Shown here: positions 1,450 to 61,348 of the stretch, one piece after another
How the letters are laid out: every line of letters begins with the position of its first letter
Numbering within the stretch: the stretch's first letter is position 1
Assembly (NCBI GenBank): GCA_035084275.1
Contig: CM068757.1
Span: 12,214,001 to 12,278,000, forward strand
Length of the DNA stretch: 64,000 bases
Source: Hydrolagus colliei
Lineage: Eukaryota
Reading direction: 5' to 3'
Notes under the pieces: model-generated
Told to the model about the DNA's origin: nothing
Databases searched by the model: none
What the model saw: only the letters and a program-made list of their open reading frames with translations
Made by a program: the position numbers and the translations under genes

Positions 1450-1613
1450 GAGCTGAAGAAGGAGCTCAAGCAGCTGATGCTGAGTGTTGTGCAGAAGCTT
1501 CATCGCTTGTCACCAATTAAAGAATCTTGGCATAAAACAGTCGCTAAACTGGAACAGGCATGTCTGCAATGTCACCAGCAGTACCTCAAAGCCAAGCACA
1601 ACCTGACAAAAAT
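1450..1613 (+). CDS. Coiled-coil coding exon, putative N-terminal extension of IRAG1 (ELKKELKQLMLSVVQKLHRL...KAKHNLTK)
   Basis: Pyrimidine tract plus ttaag acceptor and gtatgt donor; 164 nt ending in phase 2, matching the phase-2 start of exon 2635; heptad-like L/K/E pattern. Confidence 0.65.
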
Positions 1614-2634
1614 GTATGTAAATTCCTACTAATCAATCTAACTGAGTGATGTACTGTAATATACCAGGGACCGACCATATGTGGAGTCCTGTAGACTAGT
1701 GGTCAGAGCGCTCACCTTGCGAGCGAGAGGATCAAGGTTTGAATCCAAGGTGGGGTGAAACCTCAGGCAAGTTTCCCTACTCAACATGCCTCTGTTCACT
1801 CAACAGTAAGTAGGAACCTGATGTCTATTCTGAAATTGCCCCTTTGCAACTCAGCGCTCTTCATCTGCTGCCCTGGAGTGTCTGGATACATTGTTCTGGG
1901 CTTTTTTTTGGCCTATTTCCCATATAATAATAATAACAATAATAATCCTTGCATTTGATATAGCGCTTTCCACATCTTAACAACGTCCCAAAGCGCTTCA
2001 CAGAATATACTGTAAAGTGAATTGACTGTATATTTGTGGGCGAATCGCGGCAGCCAATTGCGCACAGCAGTGTCCCACATACAGTCATGGATTGAAATGA
2101 CCAATTTTATTATTGTGTTTTTTTTTGAGGGATTATTATTAGGCGTGTGGAGTAAGGAAACTTGCCCAAGGTTTTGCCCTGACCTGCCTGGATTCGAACA
2201 CAGGTCTCCCCAGCTTGGCCTCCCCAGCTTGCAAGACAAGTGCTCTAACCACTGAGCCACAGGAGCTCCATATACTGTACTGTAGTATAATATGGGATGA
2301 GATAAAATGGCTGGAGCGGCTTTCATTTTCTCAACTTGTTTAAAATTTCCTAGTGATTCTAGCCCCTTATCCCATCCCCAGCTTCCGCCCTCTGCTCAAT
2401 GAATTCGGGCTTGCTCCATATTATCCCTTCCCCAAAATGTGGCACCAGAAATGGCTGAACTTTCCAATTCTACATTCCTAACTTTGGAGCTCACTCCCTT
2501 GACCCCTCTCTATTTAGCTTCAAGTCCCACCTCTCCAATCACGCTTGTTTTCACCTCTCCGATTCTCCCCTTGCTCCATACCCACTAGCACCACCAATCA
2601 TTATCCTTCTTAACTTGTTGTTCCTGTTGCATAG

Positions 2635-3289
2635 AACCAAAGAACTGGAACTTCAGAAAAGGCTGAAGGAAGAGGCGGAAAATAAAGCTGTCTATGCTCA
2701 GTGCCGGGCAGAGGAGGCAAAAGAGGTTCTCAGAACCAGCCACGACCAACAGGCCAGGAAGAGCATGGAACATGTGAAGGAAGTTAAGGACGAGGCAGGC
2801 ATCTTGGTGATGGAGGAGACGGTCAAGGTGTTGGGCGGGGTAGTGGCCTGTTCGGAGTGCGCGTCGCTGGAGACCAGGCTGAAAGTTGGTGAACCCGAGG
2901 AACGAGAAAAAAGAATGGAGGAGAGTATGGCAGCTGCTCCGGAGAGCTCTGAGGGGAGAGCTCAGTCTGAAGTAGACAGGGCCAATGAGGCAGAGAGACC
3001 AACGGTGGAGGCTTTGCAGGCAGCAGAGGAAGGAAGGGTAGCAGATGGGGTCCTGATAGAAGAAATGGAGAGGGTGAAGGAAGAAGTCAGGCAGAACCTG
3101 TTGGAGACCAGTGGGAAAGTGACAGAAATGGAACACAAAGAGGCTGGGATGGAATGGATGGTCAACGCACCACATTGTATGACAGGCAGAGGTACAGCGG
3201 GGGTGTTGGACGAAAGCTTGTTTGGCCAAGCCGCAAGCTCAAAGAGCGGGAAGAAAACCCCAGCGGGAAATGTGAGGGAAGGAAAGGAG
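2635..3289 (+). CDS. Large Glu-rich/coiled-coil coding exon (TKELELQKRLKEEAENKA...NVREGKE), putative N-terminal extension of IRAG1
   Basis: Lies within the 256-aa ORF 2615-3385; acceptor ttgttcctgttgcatag, donor gag|gtacgt; 655 nt, phase 2 to 0; purine-rich coding composition, not repeat-derived. Confidence 0.75.
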
Positions 3290-8180: not shown

Positions 8181-8369
8181 NNNNNNNNNNNNNNNNNNNN
8201 NNNNNNNNNNNNNNNNNNNNNNNNNNNNNNNNNNNNNNNNNNNNNNNNNNNNNNNNNNNNNNNNNNNNNNNNNNNNNNNNNNNNNNNNNNNNNNNNNNNN
8301 NNNNNNNNNNNNNNNNNNNNNNNNNNNNNNNNNNNNNNNNNNNNNNNNNNNNNNNNNNNNNNNNNNNNN
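8181..8369. other. Assembly gap (189 N) next to GA-rich low-complexity sequence
   Basis: Run of n. Confidence 1.
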
Positions 8370-33300: not shown

Positions 33301-34397
33301 TAGATTAAGTGGATAATTAGACAGAAAGCAGAGAGTTGTAGTGAGCGGCTGTTTTTCAGATTGGAGGGAAGTGAGCAGTGGTGTGCCACAGGGATCAGTT
33401 TTGGGACCATTGCTGTTTGCAATCTACATCAATGATCTGGACTTGGGTGTACGGAGTACAGTTTCCAAGTTTGCAGATGACACTAAGTTAGGGAGAATAG
33501 TAAATAGTGAGGAGGATAGTAGCCATCTGCAAGAGGATATAGACAAATTGGTAAAGTGGGCAGACACATGGCAGATGAAGTTTAATGCAGAGAAGTGTGA
33601 GGTGATGCATTTTGGGAGAAGAAATGAAGGGAGGCAATATAGGCTAGATAGTAAAATTTTAAATGGTGTGAAGGAACAGAGAGACCTGGGGATTTGTGTT
33701 AGTGACTCGTTGAAGGTGGCAGGACAGGTAGACAAGTCTGTTAAAAAGGCATATGGGATACTAGGCTTTATAAATAGGGGTATAGAGTACAAAAGTCAGG
33801 AAGTGCTGACTAACCTCTATAAGACTTTGGTGAGGCCTCAGCTGGAATACTGTGTTCAATTCTGGTCACCACACTACAGAAAGGATGTGAAGGCATTGGA
33901 AAGGGTACAACGAAGATTTACTAGGATGGTGCCAGGATTGAGGGACTTCAGCTATGAGGAGAGGCTAGATAGGCTAGGGTTATTCTCTCTGGAGCAGAGA
34001 AGATTGAGGGGAGATCTAATAGAGGTTTATAAGATCATGAGGGGTTTCGACAGGGCAAATAGAGAAAAACTATTTCCACTCATGGGTGAATCTGTGACTC
34101 GTGGTCACAGATTTAAAATAGTTTCAAGGCGAAGTAGAGGGGAGCTGAGGAGAATTTTTTTCACTCAGCGAGTTGTTCGAATCTGGAATGCATTGCCTGA
34201 AAAGGTGGTGGAGGATGATTCGATAACAACTTTTAAAAGGGAATTAGATCTTAATTTAGGGAGAACAGGTCTATTAGGCTATGGGGAGCGGGCAGGGCAG
34301 TGGGATTGAATCGCTCTTTTCAAAGAGCCGGCACAGACTAGATGGACCGAATGGCCTCCTTTTGTGCCGTAAAATTCTATGAATCTATGAATCTATG
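33301..34397 (+). mobile_element. 5'-truncated CR1-clade LINE with an uninterrupted 322-codon RT/C-terminal ORF2 fragment (33341-34309) and 3' UTR
   Basis: GVPQGSVLGPLLFAIYINDL, FADD and LVRPQLEYCVQFWSP motifs; (AATCTATG/ATTCTATG)n tail; nested in an older antisense L2 fragment. Confidence 0.95.
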
Positions 34398-35564: not shown

Positions 35565-35774
35565 CTCCCGGAGGAAGAAGAGTCAACTCTGGGCCCGTCG
35601 CTTCGATCCTTGTTGACTAGTTTGCCCTTGCTGCAGATCGGCTCCTTCAGCCCACTTGGTGGCAGCCGTGCCCAGTCTCCGCACTGCATCACACCCCCTG
35701 CGATGCCGACCTTGCCCGAGGAGGAGGAGGGTGGAGAGGGACGAGGAATGAGCGAGCAGAGCCCCCTGACTGGG
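35565..35774 (+). CDS. IRAG1: IRAG1 exon containing AMPTLPEEEE (cf. mammalian AMPHIPEDEE; candidate short-isoform start Met at 35703)
   Basis: ctgcag acceptor and ggg|gtaaga donor; 210 nt, phase 0 to 0; motif similarity to the IRAG1 N-terminus. Confidence 0.82.
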
Positions 35775-48555: not shown

Positions 48556-48696
48556 AACACGTTTATTCAGTTGTCGCTGGCGTTCAAGAATGACAGCTAC
48601 ACACTGGAGGCTCGGCTCCACCTGGCAGAGAGGGAGAGAAACCTGACTGAGGACAATACTGAGAAGGAGCTGGAGAACTTCTCCACTGAGCTGAAG
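48556..48696 (+). CDS. IRAG1: IRAG1 coiled-coil exon ([47 protein letters not shown])
   Basis: Hallmark MRVI1-family domain sequence; cacag acceptor, aag|gtgagg donor. Confidence 0.97.
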
Positions 48697-49470
48697 GTGA
48701 GGGGATTACAAAGAGGAGCTCATGGGGCTTGGGGGGTTGGGGGGGCAAATGCTTTGAGATGTTCTTCCAATGTTAAGGATTGTTAAATACAATATTAAAA
48801 GTAAGGACTATATTATTATCATTATTGCTTCATTCTCTGGCACCTCCCTTCCTTTCCATCAGTACTCACGCTTTCAGCCACTATGCCCTGAAGCTTTGGC
48901 ACTCCCTCCCCCATTCCCCCCACTTTGCCCCCTCCTTCCTCTCTTTCAAATCACAACTGAAGACCTTCCTCTTCAATCATGCTTACGAGCACCTCCTCCC
49001 TCCCCCGACCTCAGTGTCACTGGTAAGCGCTCCGAGACTCTGACCTGCAGGGGGCACAAGTTGTTGTTGTGTTAGATGAAGCGTTGTGGTGGTGAGATGA
49101 ATGGAATAGAGGGAGTCAGAAGAAGAGGTTATAAAGGTGCAGTTGCTGTGAACACCAGTTCCTTTTGCCTGAGAAAGATGATTGACTTCCCTTGTTTTAT
49201 TCTCAGATGTTGGTTTCCTTGTATCAAATGCAAGGATTTCTAGATTCCAGCAATCTATCTCTGGGATTTCCCTGCGTAGGTAGGATACATGGCATTCTCA
49301 GTTTAGTTTGGATACTCTTAAGCACAGTGACGAGTTTACACACGTCAGACACATGTCCCCTTATCCCTCATTCCCCCACCACCCCCCTGCCGCTGCTCTC
49401 ACTAACATTATTATTTCTATTAGTATTGTTAAATTCCCTTTTTTCTCTTTTTTATTGATGTATATTCCAG

Positions 49471-49602
49471 TCTTCCACCACTCTCTGGCAACGGCCTGAT
49501 CACCGGGACGCTTACCAGCGGCTGCTGGAGACCATCTCTGTGCTGCACCGCTTGGCTGAGAGGCTCTCGAGCCGAGCTGAAATGGTCGGAGCCGTGCGTC
49601 AG
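49471..49602 (+). CDS. IRAG1: IRAG1 coiled-coil exon ([44 protein letters not shown])
   Basis: Matches [44 protein letters not shown]; ccag acceptor, cag|gtgaga donor. Confidence 0.97.
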
Positions 49603-49689
49603 GTGAGAACCATTCCACCCTGAGGTTTTACTTGGTGAGGATCGAGGTCAGCGGTGTCCAGCTTGCAAAGCTCATTTGATAATCCACTA

Positions 49690-50110
49690 GTCAGCCTGAC
49701 TCAGTTACTAGCCCTGCTACCTCTGGGACAGATAGTCGTGCGTTCAAGCCTTACTTTCGGTCTAGTTGTTGGGTACTGAGGGAGCGCTGCATTGTCGGAG
49801 GTGCTGTCCTTCGAGTGAGGTGTTCATCCGAGGACCCGTCCACACATTCGGGTCAATGTTTAATGATCCCACAGCTCAAATCGAAAGCAGAACCATTTTT
49901 TCTCTCTCTCCTGATCTCCCCTGGCCAACAGTCCTCTAAATAAAATCGATAATTTTTGGTCTGTAGCTGTTTGTGGGACTTCGCTGCATTTCAATTGGCT
50001 GCCGGGTTCACCCACAAAACACAGTCGTTCTGCTTTACGGGAACGTTCTGCCTCACGCTTCGGGATGTCCTCCCAGCGACGCGAGAGACACTGTAGCAGG
50101 CGCCAAGATT
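49690..50110 (+). mobile_element. Old DeuSINE-like (SacSINE1/AmnSINE1-type) element. Fragments also at about 3440-3600, 6720-6880(-), 11460-11600, 15520-15710(-) and 28990-29080
   Basis: tRNA-like head, then gagcgctgcattgtcggaggtgctgtccttcg...ccgagg...gatccca (Deu-domain-like, recognised from memory), and a 3' region shared with the abundant SINE. Confidence 0.7.
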
Positions 50111-50142
50111 GTTACTGTGGGGATTATGGTTTCCCATTGCAG

Positions 50143-50296
50143 GAAAAGCGCATGTCCAAGGCCACGGAGGTGATGATGCAGTACGTGGAGAACCTCAAGA
50201 GGACGTACGAGAAAGATCACGCAGAGCTAACCGAGTATAAAAAACTGGCCAATCAGAACTCAAACCGCACCTATGGCTCGTATGGAGAGAACGGCG
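50143..50296 (+). CDS. IRAG1: IRAG1 exon ([51 protein letters not shown])
   Basis: Near identity to mammalian IRAG1, which distinguishes it from IRAG2/LRMP; ttgcag acceptor, g|gtaggg donor. Confidence 0.97.
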
Positions 50297-53591: not shown

Positions 53592-55621
53592 GTGAGACGG
53601 TCACAGGAAAAAGGATCACTGCAAGGAATTGAAGGATGTCCCTAATATAGAATGGATACTCATCCAAGCCTCCAAGCACACACATACACGCACACACGCG
53701 TGCAATGTAAACTACTCTCACTTGACATTTTGCGACCAGGTACTTTTGATGCTTTCGCCTGTCATCACTGGGCTCTGACCTCAACTTGCTCACGTAGTAT
53801 CACAGCAAACCCTGTGCTCACAATGGGCTTCTTGTTAAACTGCGCTAACAAGCTGACAACGCTGATCTCTGTAATGTTGCGACAGTTTAAAGTGTCCGCA
53901 AGATCGCGGCAACCAGTTTGCAACATAGCAATGTCCCACAAACAGCCATGGAGTGAGTGATCGATTTTATACGGGAGATTGTTAGCCAGGACTGAGAGAG
54001 AGAAACTTCCATTGTTATTTTTAAGGATCTCTAACGTCCACTTGAACAGGCAGATGTCTCATCCAGTTAGAGCACTCGCCTTACAAGTGAGAAACCTGGT
54101 TTCAATTCCTGGCAGGGTGAAACCTTGGGCAAGTTTCCTTACTCTACAAGCCTAATAATAATCCCTAAAAAAAAACAATAATAAATTGGTCACTCAATCC
54201 ACGACTGTTGGTGGGACACTGCTGTCCGCAATTGACAGCCACGTTTCGCCCACAAATATACAGTCAATTCACTTTACAGAATATTCTGTGAGGCGCTTTG
54301 AGACATCTAGCTGATGTGAAAACCACTATATCAAATGCAAAGATTATTATCAAAGCTGGTTGAGCAGCCTTGGCCAGAGGTGTCATAGGACATCACTGCC
54401 TCAGAACAGTTGAAGCCGTGGTTAAGCGATGCTGAACATGTGGGAAAAAATCTTTGAAACTAATTTTGTAACTGTTTCACACTTTTTCACCCCAGCTCAG
54501 CTGCAAACCCTTGGCTATCCTCCCAACATAAAAAGCGCTGTATAAAAACAATTGGGGACGTTGCTGCATGCAAATTGGCTGCATCATTCACCTGCGAAAC
54601 AGCCAGTTACACTTTAAGGAAGATCCTGTCAAACGCTTTGAGATGTCCTCTTAATGTGAAAGGAGCTGTATCAATGGCAAGGATTATTATTTCGTAACAC
54701 AAGAATAAAATTGGAATCTTTCCCTGCTTTTTTTTTTAGCTTGTGTACCTTCTGACAGTAAAAAAGAAGATGCTTAAAGCATAATCAGTTGCTCGGAGGA
54801 GGTGGGGGATGGTGGGTAGGGAGGGGGGCTGAGGGTGGGGGGGTGCTGCAGAAAGTATTATTTGGATCTGATCAGATTTTTCGATGTCCTGTTACATGCT
54901 CCGTTATCTCACTGAGGCTCCTTTCCTGAAGATACCGTGTGATAGCTCATCCTCATTCCTGTAAATGCCTGACTCTTTTCCCTCACATGTTTACAACAAA
55001 ACCTCTTGGTATTCCACACCCATCAGAGCGCTTGACTGAATTCCTGCGAAGCATAGTGACTATTTATTTCATAGACCAACGCGGCAGACAATTCGCGAAC
55101 ACAGCAATGTCCCTACAAACAGAAATGAAGTGAATGTCCAATTTTATATGGGTGGGGGGGTGATCCACAGGATATTGGAGAGAAATTTCCTTCACTGTTG
55201 CCTTAGTGACATTATAAGCGCTCTGAGACGCCGTCCAGCGTGGACGGTGCTATGTAAATCAAAGTTGTTGTTGTTGTATAACATCATTATGAAGGGGAGC
55301 AGGGAATGGGTGGCCTTTTGGTGCTTTCACCTGTTATCATTGGACATATAATGAGAGTGAAATCTTCTCTCAAGCTAACTTTGTGCTGCTAAATGGCTGG
55401 GAAGGGGTTAGAATCCATTGACACTTACACTCTTAGTTCAACACTTAAAAACCAACTTGGTTCGGAGATTAAAGCATGAAAGCATGTCTGCCGATGGTGG
55501 AATGAAGGAGACAAGGGACAAACAAGCGCAAGGCAAACAGCCCTGAGGCCTTCATCCACTCAGAACAAACCGTTCAATTGCTGGCAAAACTGAATATTTT
55601 TTTTTTTGAATTGTTTCAAAG

Positions 55622-55762
55622 TTACCAAGAAGGCTTGAAGGCCCAGCTGAAGAAGGAGCTGAAAGAGTTGCCAGAGGAAGAGGAGGATGAGGAGGGGAAG
55701 GGTGAGGAAGCGAGTGTGGACGAGATCCCAGATCCCAGCCTCAAAGAGGAAAGAAAGAGCAG
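55622..55762 (+). CDS. IRAG1: IRAG1 acidic exon (YQEGLKAQLKKELKELPEEEEDEE...EERKS)
   Basis: Matches [20 protein letters not shown]; caaag acceptor, ag|gtgggt donor. Confidence 0.92.
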
Positions 55763-56411: not shown

Positions 56412-56831
56412 GTGAGAGATTTCCGTTTAAATTCACACCATATTTTAATTCAAAGAGACTACAATTGGCAGCTATAATCTAAAAAAAATACCAAGTTGTT
56501 GCCCTGTGGGACTTTGCGTTCTAACTGGTAACAGAGCTATTTGGGGGACATTGCTATATGAAAACTGGGAGCCAGGTTTTGCCTACAAATTGCCCAGCCA
56601 CTCACTTTCCAGTGATTTCTGAGAAGCTTTTTGAGAAGTTTCAAAGACTGTGTTTCAAAAACAAGTACTGTAATATTTAATTATCTTATTTGAGTATAGA
56701 GTTTGGATTTTTTTTAATCTTTCAAATTGTGTCAGATATTTTAGTTTCTTATTCAGAATCTCAGCTCTTGCCTGAGAAACCTTTAGCTGGGTACAACTCA
56801 TTCTGAACTGGTATACGATCATAAAGCAGTC

Positions 56832-57305
56832 ATCAACAACAACAAAATTACATTTTCACGACAGGAGGACGTCCCAAGGCGCTGAACAGTCAGGGGTCAG
56901 GATCAGAGCTATGGGCAGTGGCAGGGTGGGGGAAGGGGAGGGAGAGAGTTGAGAGGGCGACAGAAGGCACAATCAAAGAGGAGGGTCTTGAGACCGGCCT
57001 TGAAGGAGGCGAGGGAGGAAGCAAGGCAAAGGTATTGTGGGATGGAGTTCCAGAGTGTGGGGGCAGAGAGGCTGAACACCAGTCCACCAATGGTAGGGAG
57101 CATGTGCGCAGAATGGAGCCCGCTGAACGAAGGGGTCGGGCAGGCTCACCAATCAGGAGGACCTCAGTCTTGCTGACATTGATCTGAAGAAACTTGTTCC
57201 TCATCCGGGATTCGATGTCAGACAGGCAGGCTGTCAGGTTGCCGGCAGTCCTAGAGTTGAGGGTAGAAGCGGAGAGATAGAGTTGAATGTCATCTGAGTA
57301 CATCT
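56832..57305 (-). mobile_element. Internally deleted L2 3' fragment
   Basis: MYSDDIQLYLS...FLQINVSKTE joined directly to the PTIGG...APTLWNSIP 3' region. Confidence 0.85.
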
Positions 57306-57390
57306 GGGTCATCACTTTTTTGTCCACTGCTTTGCAACATCCTCCTGACGTGAAATAAATGCAAAAATGAAATTTGTTGTTGGCAATAAA

Positions 57391-58535
57391 TAACAACAAC
57401 AAAATTGCACTTATATAGCACCTTTCACGTCAGGAGGACATCCCAAAGCGCCGAACAGTCTGGTTGGGACCTGAACGGGGGGGGGGGGGAAAGCGGGTGG
57501 GAGGGTGGGGGAAGGTTGAAGAAGAGGGAAGGGGAAGGAGAGTGGGAGAGGGGGAAGAGTTAATGGGGCAGCTGAAGGCGCGGTCGAAGAGGAAGGTCTT
57601 GAGACCAACCTTGAAGCAGGAAAGGGAGGAACCAAGGCGGAGGGACTGCGGGATGGAGTTCCACAGTGTGGGAGCAGAGAGGCTGAAAGCCCGGCCGCCG
57701 ATGGTGGGGCGGTTAGGGGGGTGGACGCGGAACAGGCCTGAGTCTGCTGAACAGAGGGTGCGGGTAGGCTGATAGGGAGACAGTAGGTCAGAGAGTTAGG
57801 CGGGGCAAGGCCGTGAATGGCCTTGAAAGTGAGGACAAGGATCTTGAATTCGATCCTCTGGGTGACAGGGAGTCAGTGGAGACGGGCGAGGGTGGGAGTC
57901 ATGTGGTCGCGGAGCCTGGTACGGGAGAGAACACAAGCTACAGAGTTCTGAATGACCTGCAGCCTGTGAAGGGAGGAGCTGGGGAGGCCAATGAGGAGAG
58001 AGTTCCCGTAGTTGAGCCTGAAAGTGATAAAGGCGTGGATGAGGGTTTTGGCAGCATGGGGGGGTTGAGGTAGTGGCAGAGTCTGGCAATATTGCAGAGG
58101 TGATGGAAGGCTGTGCCCGTCATGGAGCGGATGTGGGGGAGGAAGGATAGCTCTGGGTTGAACAAGACGCCCAGATTCCTGATTGGCTTTGAGTAGCCTT
58201 GAAGCAGGAAAGGGAGGAGCCTTGAACGCTGATGTTGTCAGCGCCTGAGATGCAGAGGCGCTGACGTGAGTCAATCAGGAGGGCTTCCGTCTTGTTGACG
58301 TTGAGTTGCAGGAAATTTGCCCTCGTCCAGGACTCGATGTCGGACAGACATGCAATCCGCGTCAACCCTGGAATCGAGGGTTGACGATAGGTAGAGTTGG
58401 GTGTCGTCCGCATACATGTGGAAACTTACCCCATGTCTACGGATGATGTCGCCCAGGGGGAGAGTGTAGAGGGTGAAGAGCAGGAGGCCAAGGACAGAGT
58501 CCTGGGGAACGCCGCATGTGACTGTGCGGAGGCTG
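57391..58535 (-). mobile_element. L2-clade LINE 3' fragment with frameshifted RT
   Basis: Minus strand encodes [50 protein letters not shown] and AKTLIHAFITFRLNYGNSLLIGLP; (TTG)n tail. Confidence 0.92.
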
Positions 58536-59329
58536 GAGGAGAAATAATATAAATTCTAGATTCTCAACTTGTGATAATAACCTTAAATAATAATATTTTT
58601 TACGCTGGTATTGAGTCAGGAGGATATCCCATAGGATAATACACCGTAGATGGCAATGATTGTGTGTTTTGTTTCGCAACAGTTTGCCCCTAGCAACGTC
58701 TCACAAACAGCGGAAGCAGATTTGCAGTTGGTTTGCAAATGACTGTTGAACTTCTGCTTTCATCCCTTTCTGAATGGAAACCAGAGGCATTGGTTACCAT
58801 CGTCTATAATTTGGGGGCTTTCTTGTATAATAACATGAGACTTGTGGAATGAGATGATTAATTTTTTCCTTGATGGTGGCTCAGTGACACTGGCTGAAGT
58901 CATAGTCTGGTGGACAATTATAGTGCTTTCACTTCTTGTGTAAAAAATCAAATCTGGCTGAAGTCTAACTGTAACTTCATTATATAAATTTTTTCATTAC
59001 GGTGTTGCAAGGCGAAGAATTCAATATAAAAAAGGGGTGGGTGGTGGGGAGGAGGGAGGATGGGTGTTCAAAAGTGAGGAAGGGATGCAATCTTCTATGG
59101 GGGAGGTGGATTGAGTATCGGAATGGGATTCCTTATTGCGGAATTCCATTAAGGAACATTACATTTCTACGTCTATTGCGAAAGGGCCTCTTCCCCCTCC
59201 ACGCCCCCACCCCACCACACACACACCACCACCCCTACCAAACTCAATCATTGCGGGAAAAGGGTGCCTATATCTTATGGCCAGAATGTGAATAACAGAA
59301 CTTTTGCCCTCACTCTTTCTCTCTCGTAG

Positions 59330-59576
59330 CAAGCTGGAAGAAGTCTCGGACCTGGTCGACAGACTGTGCCCGAAATGCTTGAAGCATCGGAACGTGGTGT
59401 GGATTCTGGCGGTGGCAGTGATCCTCTTGGCAGTTGTGATCAGCATATTCACGTCTCTCCGTTATCCCTGTGATGACCCGACGAACCCGCCAAATGGCAA
59501 GAGCACGTGCTCGGCCGTGCAGCAGTACCTGTGGGCTTACTCAGGAACCCGACACAAGAACCGCGCACCTGTGTGA
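59330..59576 (+). CDS. IRAG1: IRAG1 terminal coding exon: TM helix (VVWILAVAVILLAVVISIFTSL) plus luminal tail ending YLWAYSGTRHKNRAPV*
   Basis: Pyrimidine tract plus cgtag acceptor; SKLEE...STCSA matches IRAG1; TGA at 59574-59576. Confidence 0.96.
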
Positions 59577-60365
59577 ACGGGGACCGTCCTTTGCTCTGGG
59601 ATTGGGATGTGGGGAGAGGGAGGGTGGGATGAGGTGGATGGGGAGGCCTGAAACACTGTTGACATATCATTCAGACAAAACCCTCACGGACAAATTGAGT
59701 GATAGCAACTTCACAGGTGTTTCCGAAGGAATGTGTTCGCTGGTGTGCGGAGAAAATGGGGATGTTTTACGCCTGAAACAGGGCACGTTCGCACCAACAA
59801 CAACAACTTGCATTTATACAGCGCCCCTCACATAGGGCAACGATTCGTAGCGCTTAACTGTGGCGGAGCCTGACACCAAACCAGGGCCGGGGGTGACCGG
59901 AAGCAACGAGTGTGGAGTCGGTCGCTCAGGTGTTCGACAGGTCCCGAATGAGGCCATTCCTGTGTTAGTTTGTTTTACAGCAGCTTCTCACGTGCTGAAA
60001 CGGGAGTTGTAAAAAGTAATTAACACTTGGAACAGTGTCGTTTAAACCCAACCTTTTACTGTCAGTCCGCAAATGGATCATTTCCAATTGAATTCCATCG
60101 CACCACCCACCCACTCCCCCCCCCCCACAAACGACCAAGACCTTTTAACCTCATAAATGTTCAATTTTAACCCCCGAACTGCTAGCGATGGACAAACCAC
60201 ATCCTTGAGTTATTGCTTTGTCATAGCTTTCAACTGTTTACTAAGCTCAACCCCTTTCACCCAAGCCACTCTCCTTCTACCCCCATCACAGATTTTGTTG
60301 GAAGATATGTAGAATGCAAACAGAGAAGGAAAAAAATACGAGTGAGTGAGTGCGTGTGTGTATAT

Positions 60366-61042: not shown

Positions 61043-61348
61043 CAGGCCCTCTCAGAGGTTCAGAGAGGCCCGGGCCACTTTCAACTTTTGCGGCCCCTGG
61101 CCATAAAAAAAATAACGGTTAAGTTCCAAATCACAGCCTCACCATATTTGATAAGTACAATATTAGGAAATTATAATTCAAACTTTGATTTTTTAAACAA
61201 ATCTAATAAAAACTTGTAAAAATGTTCGCAACAAGTCGCAAAACTTAACAAATGACAAAAAAATTAACAAGTGTCTAAATTTGAGGCCCCCTTTGAGTTT
61301 GAGGCCCAGGCCAAATGGCCCTCCTTGCCTCCCCTCTGATTGGCCCTG
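61043..61348. mobile_element. 306-bp non-autonomous hAT-type MITE
   Basis: Perfect 8-bp TSD GCCGTAAA (61035-61042 and 61349-61356); imperfect 16-bp TIRs CAGGCCCTCTCAGAGG / CCTCTGATTGGCCCTG (13/16); GGCCC subterminal repeats; AT-rich core. Confidence 0.88.

Follow-up and report, generated by a model that had tools for sequence, protein, structure and literature searches.

Hydrolagus colliei IRAG1 carries a degenerate KASH6-like luminal tail, probably the relic of a KASH-type ancestor

The window analysed here, a stretch of 64,000 nucleotides of the Hydrolagus colliei genome, contains exons that correspond to Callorhinchus milii IRAG1 from about 36 kb to 59.6 kb (tblastn), as well as two exons near its 5' end that close a chain beginning outside it (Table 1). 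The gene had been named IRAG1 in an earlier note made from the letters alone, and the name is borne out both by the MRVI1 core and by the neighbouring gene. In a tree of 41 core domains the window gene groups with IRAG1 (100/100) as sister to C. milii, whose core is 99% identical, in a clade with tetrapod IRAG1 (100/100); minus-strand exons of CTR9 (L020, G000:C24:12174001-12184000) lie head-to-head with the predicted start of a long IRAG1 form, and we take CTR9 to adjoin IRAG1 in the human gene order too. An LYVE1-like neighbour downstream was not confirmed, the candidate being merely a Thr/Ser-rich open reading frame with no Pfam match. The genome has three MRVI1 loci: the window gene, one on C13 that groups with LRMP in the same tree, and a third (G000:C29:3250000-3267000; L011, L012, L014) that falls with short proteins in a clade of its own (99/98). 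The tail of this third paralogue was sought and not located; the short proteins of its clade, from shark, bichir, snake and duck, end 5-13 residues past the transmembrane (TM) helix without a KASH-like motif, and carry mixed labels, IRAG1-like or IRAG2-like.

Among the IRAG1 exons, the one carrying the MPTLP start of the annotated short form has a frame that stays open upstream of that Met, and the one matching the conserved N-terminal segment is presumably the PKG-I-beta docking region. The three-exon coiled-coil core corresponds to the region that binds IP3R in mammals (PMC10298018 and PMC8707672, in the parts of the text available). A run of 189 Ns (8181-8369) falls in the long interval separating the upstream exons from those of IRAG1, and high-copy repeats occupy 56700-58570 in the last intron. 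There is also a 330-codon open frame at 33317-34306, which to our eye resembles a LINE reverse transcriptase.

Table 1. Features of the H. colliei IRAG1 locus, in window positions unless a contig is named
Feature	Position	Strand	Evidence
EF-hand exon, outside the window	G000:C24:12198719-12198899	+	EF-hand_9 E 5e-5 (under the cut-off)
KASH_CCD exon, outside the window	from 12203531 (G000:C24)	+	KASH_CCD E 3e-11
Coiled-coil exon of predicted long N-terminus	1450..1613	+	51% to sawfish long IRAG1 P0254, E 2e-12; in frame with neighbours
Large coiled-coil exon of predicted long N-terminus	2635..3289	+	E 1e-9 to P0254; exon start similar to sturgeon P0015
Exon with start of annotated short IRAG1 form (MPTLP, C. 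milii P0001)	35565..35774	+	
Exon matching conserved IRAG1 N-terminal segment	39481..39658	+	88% to C. milii, 72% to gharial
MRVI1 coiled-coil core, three exons (48556-48696, 49471-49602, 50143 to about 50295)	48556..50295	+	
Penultimate exon, acidic, helical; 5' edge approximate	55617..55762	+	tblastn C. milii IRAG1 87.5%; donor GT after 55762
Last coding exon of IRAG1 (juxtamembrane segment, TM helix, luminal tail, stop)	59330..59576	+	AG acceptor and phase match
Predicted tail-anchor TM helix	59394..59456	+	best 21-residue hydropathy window, mean 2.84
Luminal tail, 39 residues	59457..59573	+	
Cys-34 and Cys-21 pair, likely an intrachain disulfide loop	59469..59510	+	
Degenerate KASH6-like peptide, positions -14 to 0 (LWAYSGTRHKNRAPV)	59529..59573	+	register with PDB KASH6 chain; profile score
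Candidate polyA signal, first AATAAA 3' of the stop	61205..61210	+	

A pyrimidine tract with AG directly precedes the last coding exon, whose phase agrees with that of the donor at 55762; the 55762/59330 junction reads KSSKLEEV where C. milii has KSSKLGEV. The plus-strand frame of the exon (59331-59573) passes through a basic juxtamembrane segment and a hydrophobic helix and ends QQYLWAYSGTRHKNRAPV, followed by TGA at 59574-59576, the extreme C-terminus being RHKNRAPV-stop. The exon is 90% identical to C. milii IRAG1 and matches the last 80 of the 533 positions of the Pfam MRVI1 model (454-533, E 2e-14). With the final residue numbered 0 and earlier residues negative, the helix, the Cys at -21 and the RHKNRAPV end are as the earlier note described them, and the luminal tail that it put at about 38 residues comes to 39. 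A single TM helix with a luminal C-terminus of this length lies within the 9-40 residues given as a criterion for KASH proteins (PMC4050730, in the text available). One contig of run X1 spans 58501-59823 with a single letter differing, and its only listed difference there is at 59777, which is non-coding; this agreement is not independent, because X1 may be the assembled sample. The X1 contigs cover introns and exons alike, and no splice joint was found among the X1 matches listed.

Leu-14, Trp-13, an aromatic residue at -11, Arg-7, His-6, Pro-1 and Val0 of the tail stand in ungapped register with crystallised human KASH6, the KASH peptide of LRMP (PDB 7z8y and 8b46), and the seven-position register with LRMP that had been put forward beforehand is thus matched at 7/7 positions of the crystallised chain. 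Ten of the last 22 residues are identical to the LRMP tail of the same genome. Scored against a profile of 24 distinct LRMP and hemichordate tails, the IRAG1 tail gains 17.3 bits, a value reached by 0 of 100,000 shuffles, and it ranks first among the 2,012 open reading frame ends of the window, the next best scoring -6.7. A likeness arising by chance, or a non-coding frame, might be argued from the Pfam KASH model (PF10541), which does not match the last exon, and from phmmer, which with the last exon as query had no PDB KASH6 chain among its matches at E up to 10. The Pfam model, the score against which had been proposed as a check, also misses the LRMP exon of this genome, an LRMP protein and coelacanth KASH5, and because LRMP and KASH5 fail as well it is uninformative for membership. 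Set against the shuffles, the ranking and the orthologous tails across jawed vertebrates, the chance or non-coding reading appears effectively refuted, with only the slightest probability left to it; judged from sequence, the tail is homologous to the KASH6 peptide of LRMP.

The total profile score argues for homology and not for function, because it is far below those of the training tails (leave-one-out minimum 36.5, median 79) and inside the range of KASH5-type tails (-21.7 to 27.5). The last four residues contribute 2.6 bits, against 15.6 for the LRMP of the same genome. The orca IRAG1 tail scores -9.7 and those of other tetrapods -30 to -44, being mostly one residue shorter; the human IRAG1 end that the earlier note gave agrees with orca protein P0251, an orca rather than a human sequence having served for the comparison. 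That note was right that the terminal Pro-Val is kept and a full PPPX absent, the end being RAPV, but it left out the mismatches to LRMP at -12 (Ala), -8 (Thr), -3 (Arg) and -2 (Ala).

To place these residues we compared IRAG1 rows (the best 120 of 764 matches, mostly birds and with isoforms counted separately, plus 15 further IRAG1-type rows) with 44 other tails picked by hand from 150 rows: 21 distinct LRMP, 10 KASH5-type and 13 invertebrate. Left out of the 44 were rows without a TM helix or tail, the atypical-end P0349, short-tailed proteins such as P0299, P0314, P0325, P0333, P0340, P0341, P0344, P0371, P0381 and P0384, and the frog LRMP P0373, whose tail extends beyond the motif and has no PP (with it, LRMP would stand at 21/22). 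Pro-2 is present in all 44 picked tails (LRMP 21/21, KASH5-type 10/10, invertebrate 13/13), a count that is partly by construction because the set was chosen after the tails had been viewed, and in 0/135 IRAG1 rows (0/120 of the best 120 of 764 matches and 0/15 of the further rows); Pro-1 is present in 43/44 of the picked tails. At -12 H. colliei has lost the Pro that C. milii retains and that stands in 21/21 LRMP tails. Position -8, which would correspond to the buried Leu-9 of nesprins, is hydrophobic in 21/21 LRMP and 10/10 KASH5 tails, is Ser or Pro in sharks, and is Thr in H. colliei. His-6 is in register with H549 of KASH6, the equivalent of the Tyr-7 anchor. The end RAPV falls outside both the animal pattern [PATHQL]PP[QTVFILM] and the plant pattern; the animal pattern fits 21/21 LRMP and 10/10 KASH5 tails and 0/120 IRAG1 rows (best 120 of 764 matches). 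The same published survey, in its available text, allows Ala at -2 in plant KASH peptides and records rare animal ends without proline at -1 or -2 (PMC4050730).

The cysteines of the tail lie at -21 and, as a second luminal Cys, at -34. Cys-21 was considered as the SUN-bonding Cys-23 of nesprin-1/2 type and rejected on register, since it aligns with Trp-21, present in 21/21 LRMP tails; a nesprin-type disulfide, which LRMP and KASH5 lack, is in any case not required for SUN binding (PMC6527376, text in part). Cys-34 and Cys-21 occur together in 113/117 anchorable IRAG1 rows (among the best 120 of 764 matches, 3 of the 120 being without an anchor), and this co-occurrence suggests an intrachain loop.

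A KASH motif is expected to be common to most members of its family. Among the relatives compared, a PV end is known in two holocephalans only, H. colliei and C. milii, the latter being the single case in the best 120 of 764 IRAG1 matches (1/120), and Gln stands at -1 in 9/9 elasmobranch species (sharks and rays) having the last exon, P0098 and P0254 not being counted as both models end before it. The earlier note had staked its reading on conservation of the terminal PV in related species; in part that conservation fails, although Pro-1 itself is kept in coelacanth, sturgeon, eel and several teleosts, with residue 0 there mostly Glu, and in 9/15 of the further IRAG1-type rows. Because it recurs in these fishes, Pro-1 is probably ancestral in IRAG1 and merely retained in H. 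colliei. Tetrapod tails have neither Pro-1 nor Val0 and share a conserved, proline-free version of the tail.

Between holocephalans and sharks the tail is more conserved (0.67-0.73) than the TM helix (0.51) or the linker (0.57), with 73% identity over -14 to -5; the tail ends at the identical position in 8/8 species compared, and Trp-13, His-6, Lys-5 and Arg-3 are invariant in 8/8 chondrichthyans compared. Conservation and fixed length are the best argument for some function of the tail, and that function does not need Pro-1, because sharks carry Gln-1 yet keep the rest. One way of accounting for this is a second use of a former KASH peptide: its disulfide loop and W-x(6)-H stretch would bind a luminal partner other than SUN, such as a factor for insertion or processing or a luminal face of IP3R, and that binding would keep the tail conserved. 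The widespread Cys pair, with no Cys at -21 in LRMP, the invariant chondrichthyan residues and the conserved proline-free tetrapod tail are consistent with such re-use, as is the finding that the luminal domain of LRMP controls ER targeting and is cleaved (PMC10298018, as far as its available text goes). Yet several teleosts have shortened or lost the tail, the partner is putative, and much of the conservation may reflect the slow evolution of chondrichthyans; we regard re-use as unlikely.

The structural demands of SUN binding bear more directly on the tail. According to the available text of two structural studies (PMC6527376, PMC3585024), the SUN pocket accepts a terminal PPPX with its carboxylate, positions -7 and -9 are buried, and binding in vitro is abolished by a one-residue extension or by mutation at -7 or -9; in KASH6, H549 (-6) takes the place of the Tyr anchor and W534 (-21) organises a higher-order complex (PMC10827754, likewise in part). 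The IRAG1 tail retains the end position, Val0, Pro-1, His-6 and Trp-13, and is without Pro-2, a hydrophobic -8, Pro-12 and Trp-21, with Arg at -3. A model with a SUN trimer, the other check proposed in the earlier note, was predicted from three copies of the last 38 residues and three SUN1 domains of C. milii. The 3:3 complex scored 0.54 against 0.27 for the best of three controls, which weakly supports an interaction; the runs share at least 31% of contacts, and partner pLDDT is at least 33. In calibration the mark was reached by 51/78 solved and 2/108 mismatched pairs, and the range at 0.60 or under held 5/78 solved pairs and all 4 passing mismatches. The calibration included no peptides, our own alignments did not enter the prediction, and the SUN1 was that of a related species. 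Memory of known structures may account for the pass, because SUN1-KASH6 is a solved structure and close cousins of true partners passed in 10/12 cases; the prediction indicates likeness and moved the odds little.

The tail could on these grounds still be a live, non-canonical KASH peptide, with Pro-Val in the SUN pocket and His-6 anchoring the strand under the KASH lid, and holocephalan IRAG1, above all its long EF-hand isoform, would then belong to the LINC complex and bring dynein, PKG and IP3R together at the nuclear envelope. The exact terminal register and the C. milii SUN1 prediction speak for this, and the lack of Pro-2, Pro-12 and a hydrophobic -8, the Arg at -3, the Gln-1 of all nine elasmobranchs and the possible memory in the prediction speak against it. 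We think it quite unlikely, and the earlier suggestion of an undescribed LINC-complex component is not upheld at more than that level. The accompanying suggestion that the tail may bind SUN proteins fares similarly: Pro-1 in fishes and the weak prediction pass lend it something, but with Pro-2 and the -8 anchor missing a working site is not supported, and SUN binding by H. colliei IRAG1 today appears doubtful. SUN1 and SUN2 are absent from the main text of a proximity-labelling paper on mammalian MRVI1.

Instead, H. colliei IRAG1 is probably an ER-anchored protein with a decayed relic KASH peptide and no load-bearing LINC link. It would be tail-anchored in bulk ER/SR like mammalian IRAG1, which is ER/SR-located and binds PKG-I-beta and IP3R (PMC10298018, available text), its cytosolic part coupling PKG to IP3R; the IRAG1 segments related to PKG-I-beta and IP3R are conserved in H. 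colliei (tblastn with C. milii IRAG1). The luminal tail may fold as a small disulfide-closed loop that SUN proteins do not hold at the outer nuclear membrane. What tells against decay is tail conservation above that of the TM helix and linker, the H549-equivalent His-6, the persistence of Pro-1, the Ala-2 of plant KASH peptides and the deviating animal ends, and the prediction pass; so does the fixed tail length, because a SUN ligand, tolerating no one-residue extension, would show just that.

The long coiled-coil N-terminus mentioned in the earlier note turns out to be more than its reader could see. At least 13 exons on the same strand as IRAG1 form a chain (G000:C24:12197500-12214000, L017 and L018, continued by window 1450-3289) that matches the sawfish long IRAG1 model, has AG/GT exon ends, includes two runs that splice in frame and stop-free, and ends within the window with the exons at 1.45 kb and 2.6 kb. 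For the latter exon the 3' end is uncertain, with donors at 3271 or 3289 and a stop in frame at about 3385, and no convincing linking exon was found between 3.4 and 30.8 kb of the window. The EF-hand and first coiled-coil exon group with the long IRAG1 N-termini of sawfish, sturgeons and four teleosts (100/98), apart from the LRMP (C13) and KASH5 (C43) of this genome, in a tree that gave a long-branch warning on its echinoderm row. For sawfish, sturgeon, Paramormyrops, Hoplias and medaka, automatic database models contain an EF-hand/KASH_CCD head and IRAG1 in one protein; C. milii has a short model. The sawfish protein (Pristis pectinata P0254) is labelled IRAG2 at source and has its core in the IRAG1 clade, and the long N-terminus is a possible cause of this labelling. 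We rejected a distinct KASH5-like gene upstream: the window has no second KASH-like open reading frame end, and the exons group with IRAG1 N-termini. The long isoform is likely made in H. colliei. Elsewhere in the genome, a KASH5-type gene on C43 (52 kb) and a long LRMP on C13 both carry EF-hand and KASH_CCD exons of their own, C43 has a SUN-domain exon as well, and four nesprin-type KASH exons (L027-L030; C3, C17 twice, C99) end PPPI, PPPT, PPPT and PPPF.

An EF-hand pair followed by a long coiled coil is what characterises dynein adaptors of KASH5/Fue type, and the open, phase-compatible exon chain of H. colliei shows this arrangement. KASH5 needs a Leu, a Phe and a Met to bind the light intermediate chain (LIC) of dynein (PMC9242646, seen in part), and by spacing these appear to be kept in the upstream EF-hand, a mapping that would also favour the live KASH reading. 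Taken at its strongest, that reading makes chimaera IRAG1 a seventh vertebrate KASH protein in its final functional form, with a long isoform whose KASH5-like head would activate dynein, whose middle would regulate PKG/IP3R and whose non-canonical xAPV tail would still dock on SUN. If so, cGMP and calcium signalling would be wired directly into a motor-loaded LINC complex, and sharks, teleosts and tetrapods would display stepwise loss of the SUN link; we hold this to be a long shot. SUN anchoring does not follow from an adaptor-like head, because in the medaka and Paramormyrops models the head is present and a KASH-like end is missing. Under the relic reading, any long isoform that is produced would place a KASH5-like dynein-adaptor head on a protein anchored in the ER and not by SUN. 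Three database models, medaka IRAG1 P0249, Paramormyrops IRAG1 P0243 and frog LRMP P0373, have lost the KASH-like end and kept the N-terminal module, through real loss or model error.

That IRAG1 descends from a KASH protein, as had been proposed from the tail, is well supported. Two hemichordate proteins, P0303 and P0332, unite in one gene the EF-hand, KASH_CCD, an IRAG1-like N-terminal segment, MRVI1, a TM helix and a tail in the same register ending PPPQ (both are annotated as leucine-rich-repeat proteins), and in the core tree the invertebrates separate as outgroup with a 98/94 split, under midpoint rooting and without a formal clade test. On the simplest reading, the PP-x tail would be ancestral and Pro-2 lost on the IRAG1 stem; the motif suggests SUN binding by the invertebrate proteins. 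We envisage a single pre-vertebrate gene with EF-hand, KASH5-type coiled coil, IRAG1-type N-terminal segment, MRVI1 coiled coil, TM helix and PP-x tail, whose duplication would have given LRMP (KASH kept), KASH5 (N-terminal half and KASH kept), a short tail-less paralogue, and IRAG1, in which loss of Pro-2 on the stem would have been followed by tail erosion lineage by lineage, slowest in cartilaginous fishes. KASH5 and LRMP have been proposed as split products of a fish fue/lrmp gene, MRVI1/IRAG going unmentioned in the available text of that paper (PMC3787381). The present locus extends the proposal: one cartilaginous fish has KASH5, a long LRMP and an IRAG1 locus that includes long-form exons, and hemichordates have an all-in-one gene of the family. 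IRAG1, known as an ER calcium regulator, is thereby placed in a single family together with LRMP, Futile cycle and KASH5. The tails of chimaera, shark, sturgeon, coelacanth and tetrapods make up a natural series in which to ask what prolines are needed by the SUN pocket. Irrespective of its tail, the long IRAG1 predicted in fish is a candidate for a dynein adaptor anchored in the ER.

Part of this is already known: tail homology is implicit in the Pfam MRVI1 model, and long forms are present in automatic annotations. The full-text literature searched contained, in its available parts, no description of a KASH-like tail or an EF-hand/KASH_CCD isoform for IRAG1, although Lindeman and Pelegri 2012, Sosa 2012 and Kozono 2018/2023 may already compare the IRAG1 tail. 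A review of the IRAG proteins treats, in the text available, only IRAG2 as a KASH protein and speculates on further locations of IRAG1 (PMC10298018).

Among known systems, mammalian IRAG1/MRVI1 is the orthologue, sharing the adjoining CTR9 and a TM helix with a luminal tail bearing the Cys pair; the H. colliei tail differs in being much closer to KASH6 (17.3 bits against -9.7 in orca), and the upstream EF-hand/KASH_CCD chain is not among the mammalian isoforms described in the accessible text of PMC10298018. Nesprin-1/2 KASH proteins (PF10541) are likewise tail-anchored, with a short luminal peptide and a terminal P-x, whereas the H. colliei tail has no Pfam match, Cys-23, Pro-11 kink, Leu-9/Tyr-7 pair or PPPX. 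IRAG2/LRMP/Jaw1, a demonstrated SUN binder (PMC3787381, PMC10827754, each in part), is the paralogue with equal tail length and register and the same His-6, Trp-13, Leu-14, Pro-1 and Val0; where all or nearly all of 21 LRMP tails have Trp-21, Pro-12, Leu-8 and Pro-2, H. colliei IRAG1 has Cys, Ala, Thr and Ala. Zebrafish Futile cycle, a long Lrmp that joins the EF-hand/KASH_CCD N-terminus to an MRVI1 domain (PMC3787381, available text), and KASH5/CCDC155 share that N-terminus with the H. colliei locus; its upstream exons, unlike theirs, cluster with the N-termini of long IRAG1 (100/98) and are predicted to splice to the IRAG1 exons, and the tail has no intact PPPX-type end. H. colliei IRAG1 is probably not a new LINC component; the long, Futile-cycle-like IRAG1 locus is a better-supported side result.
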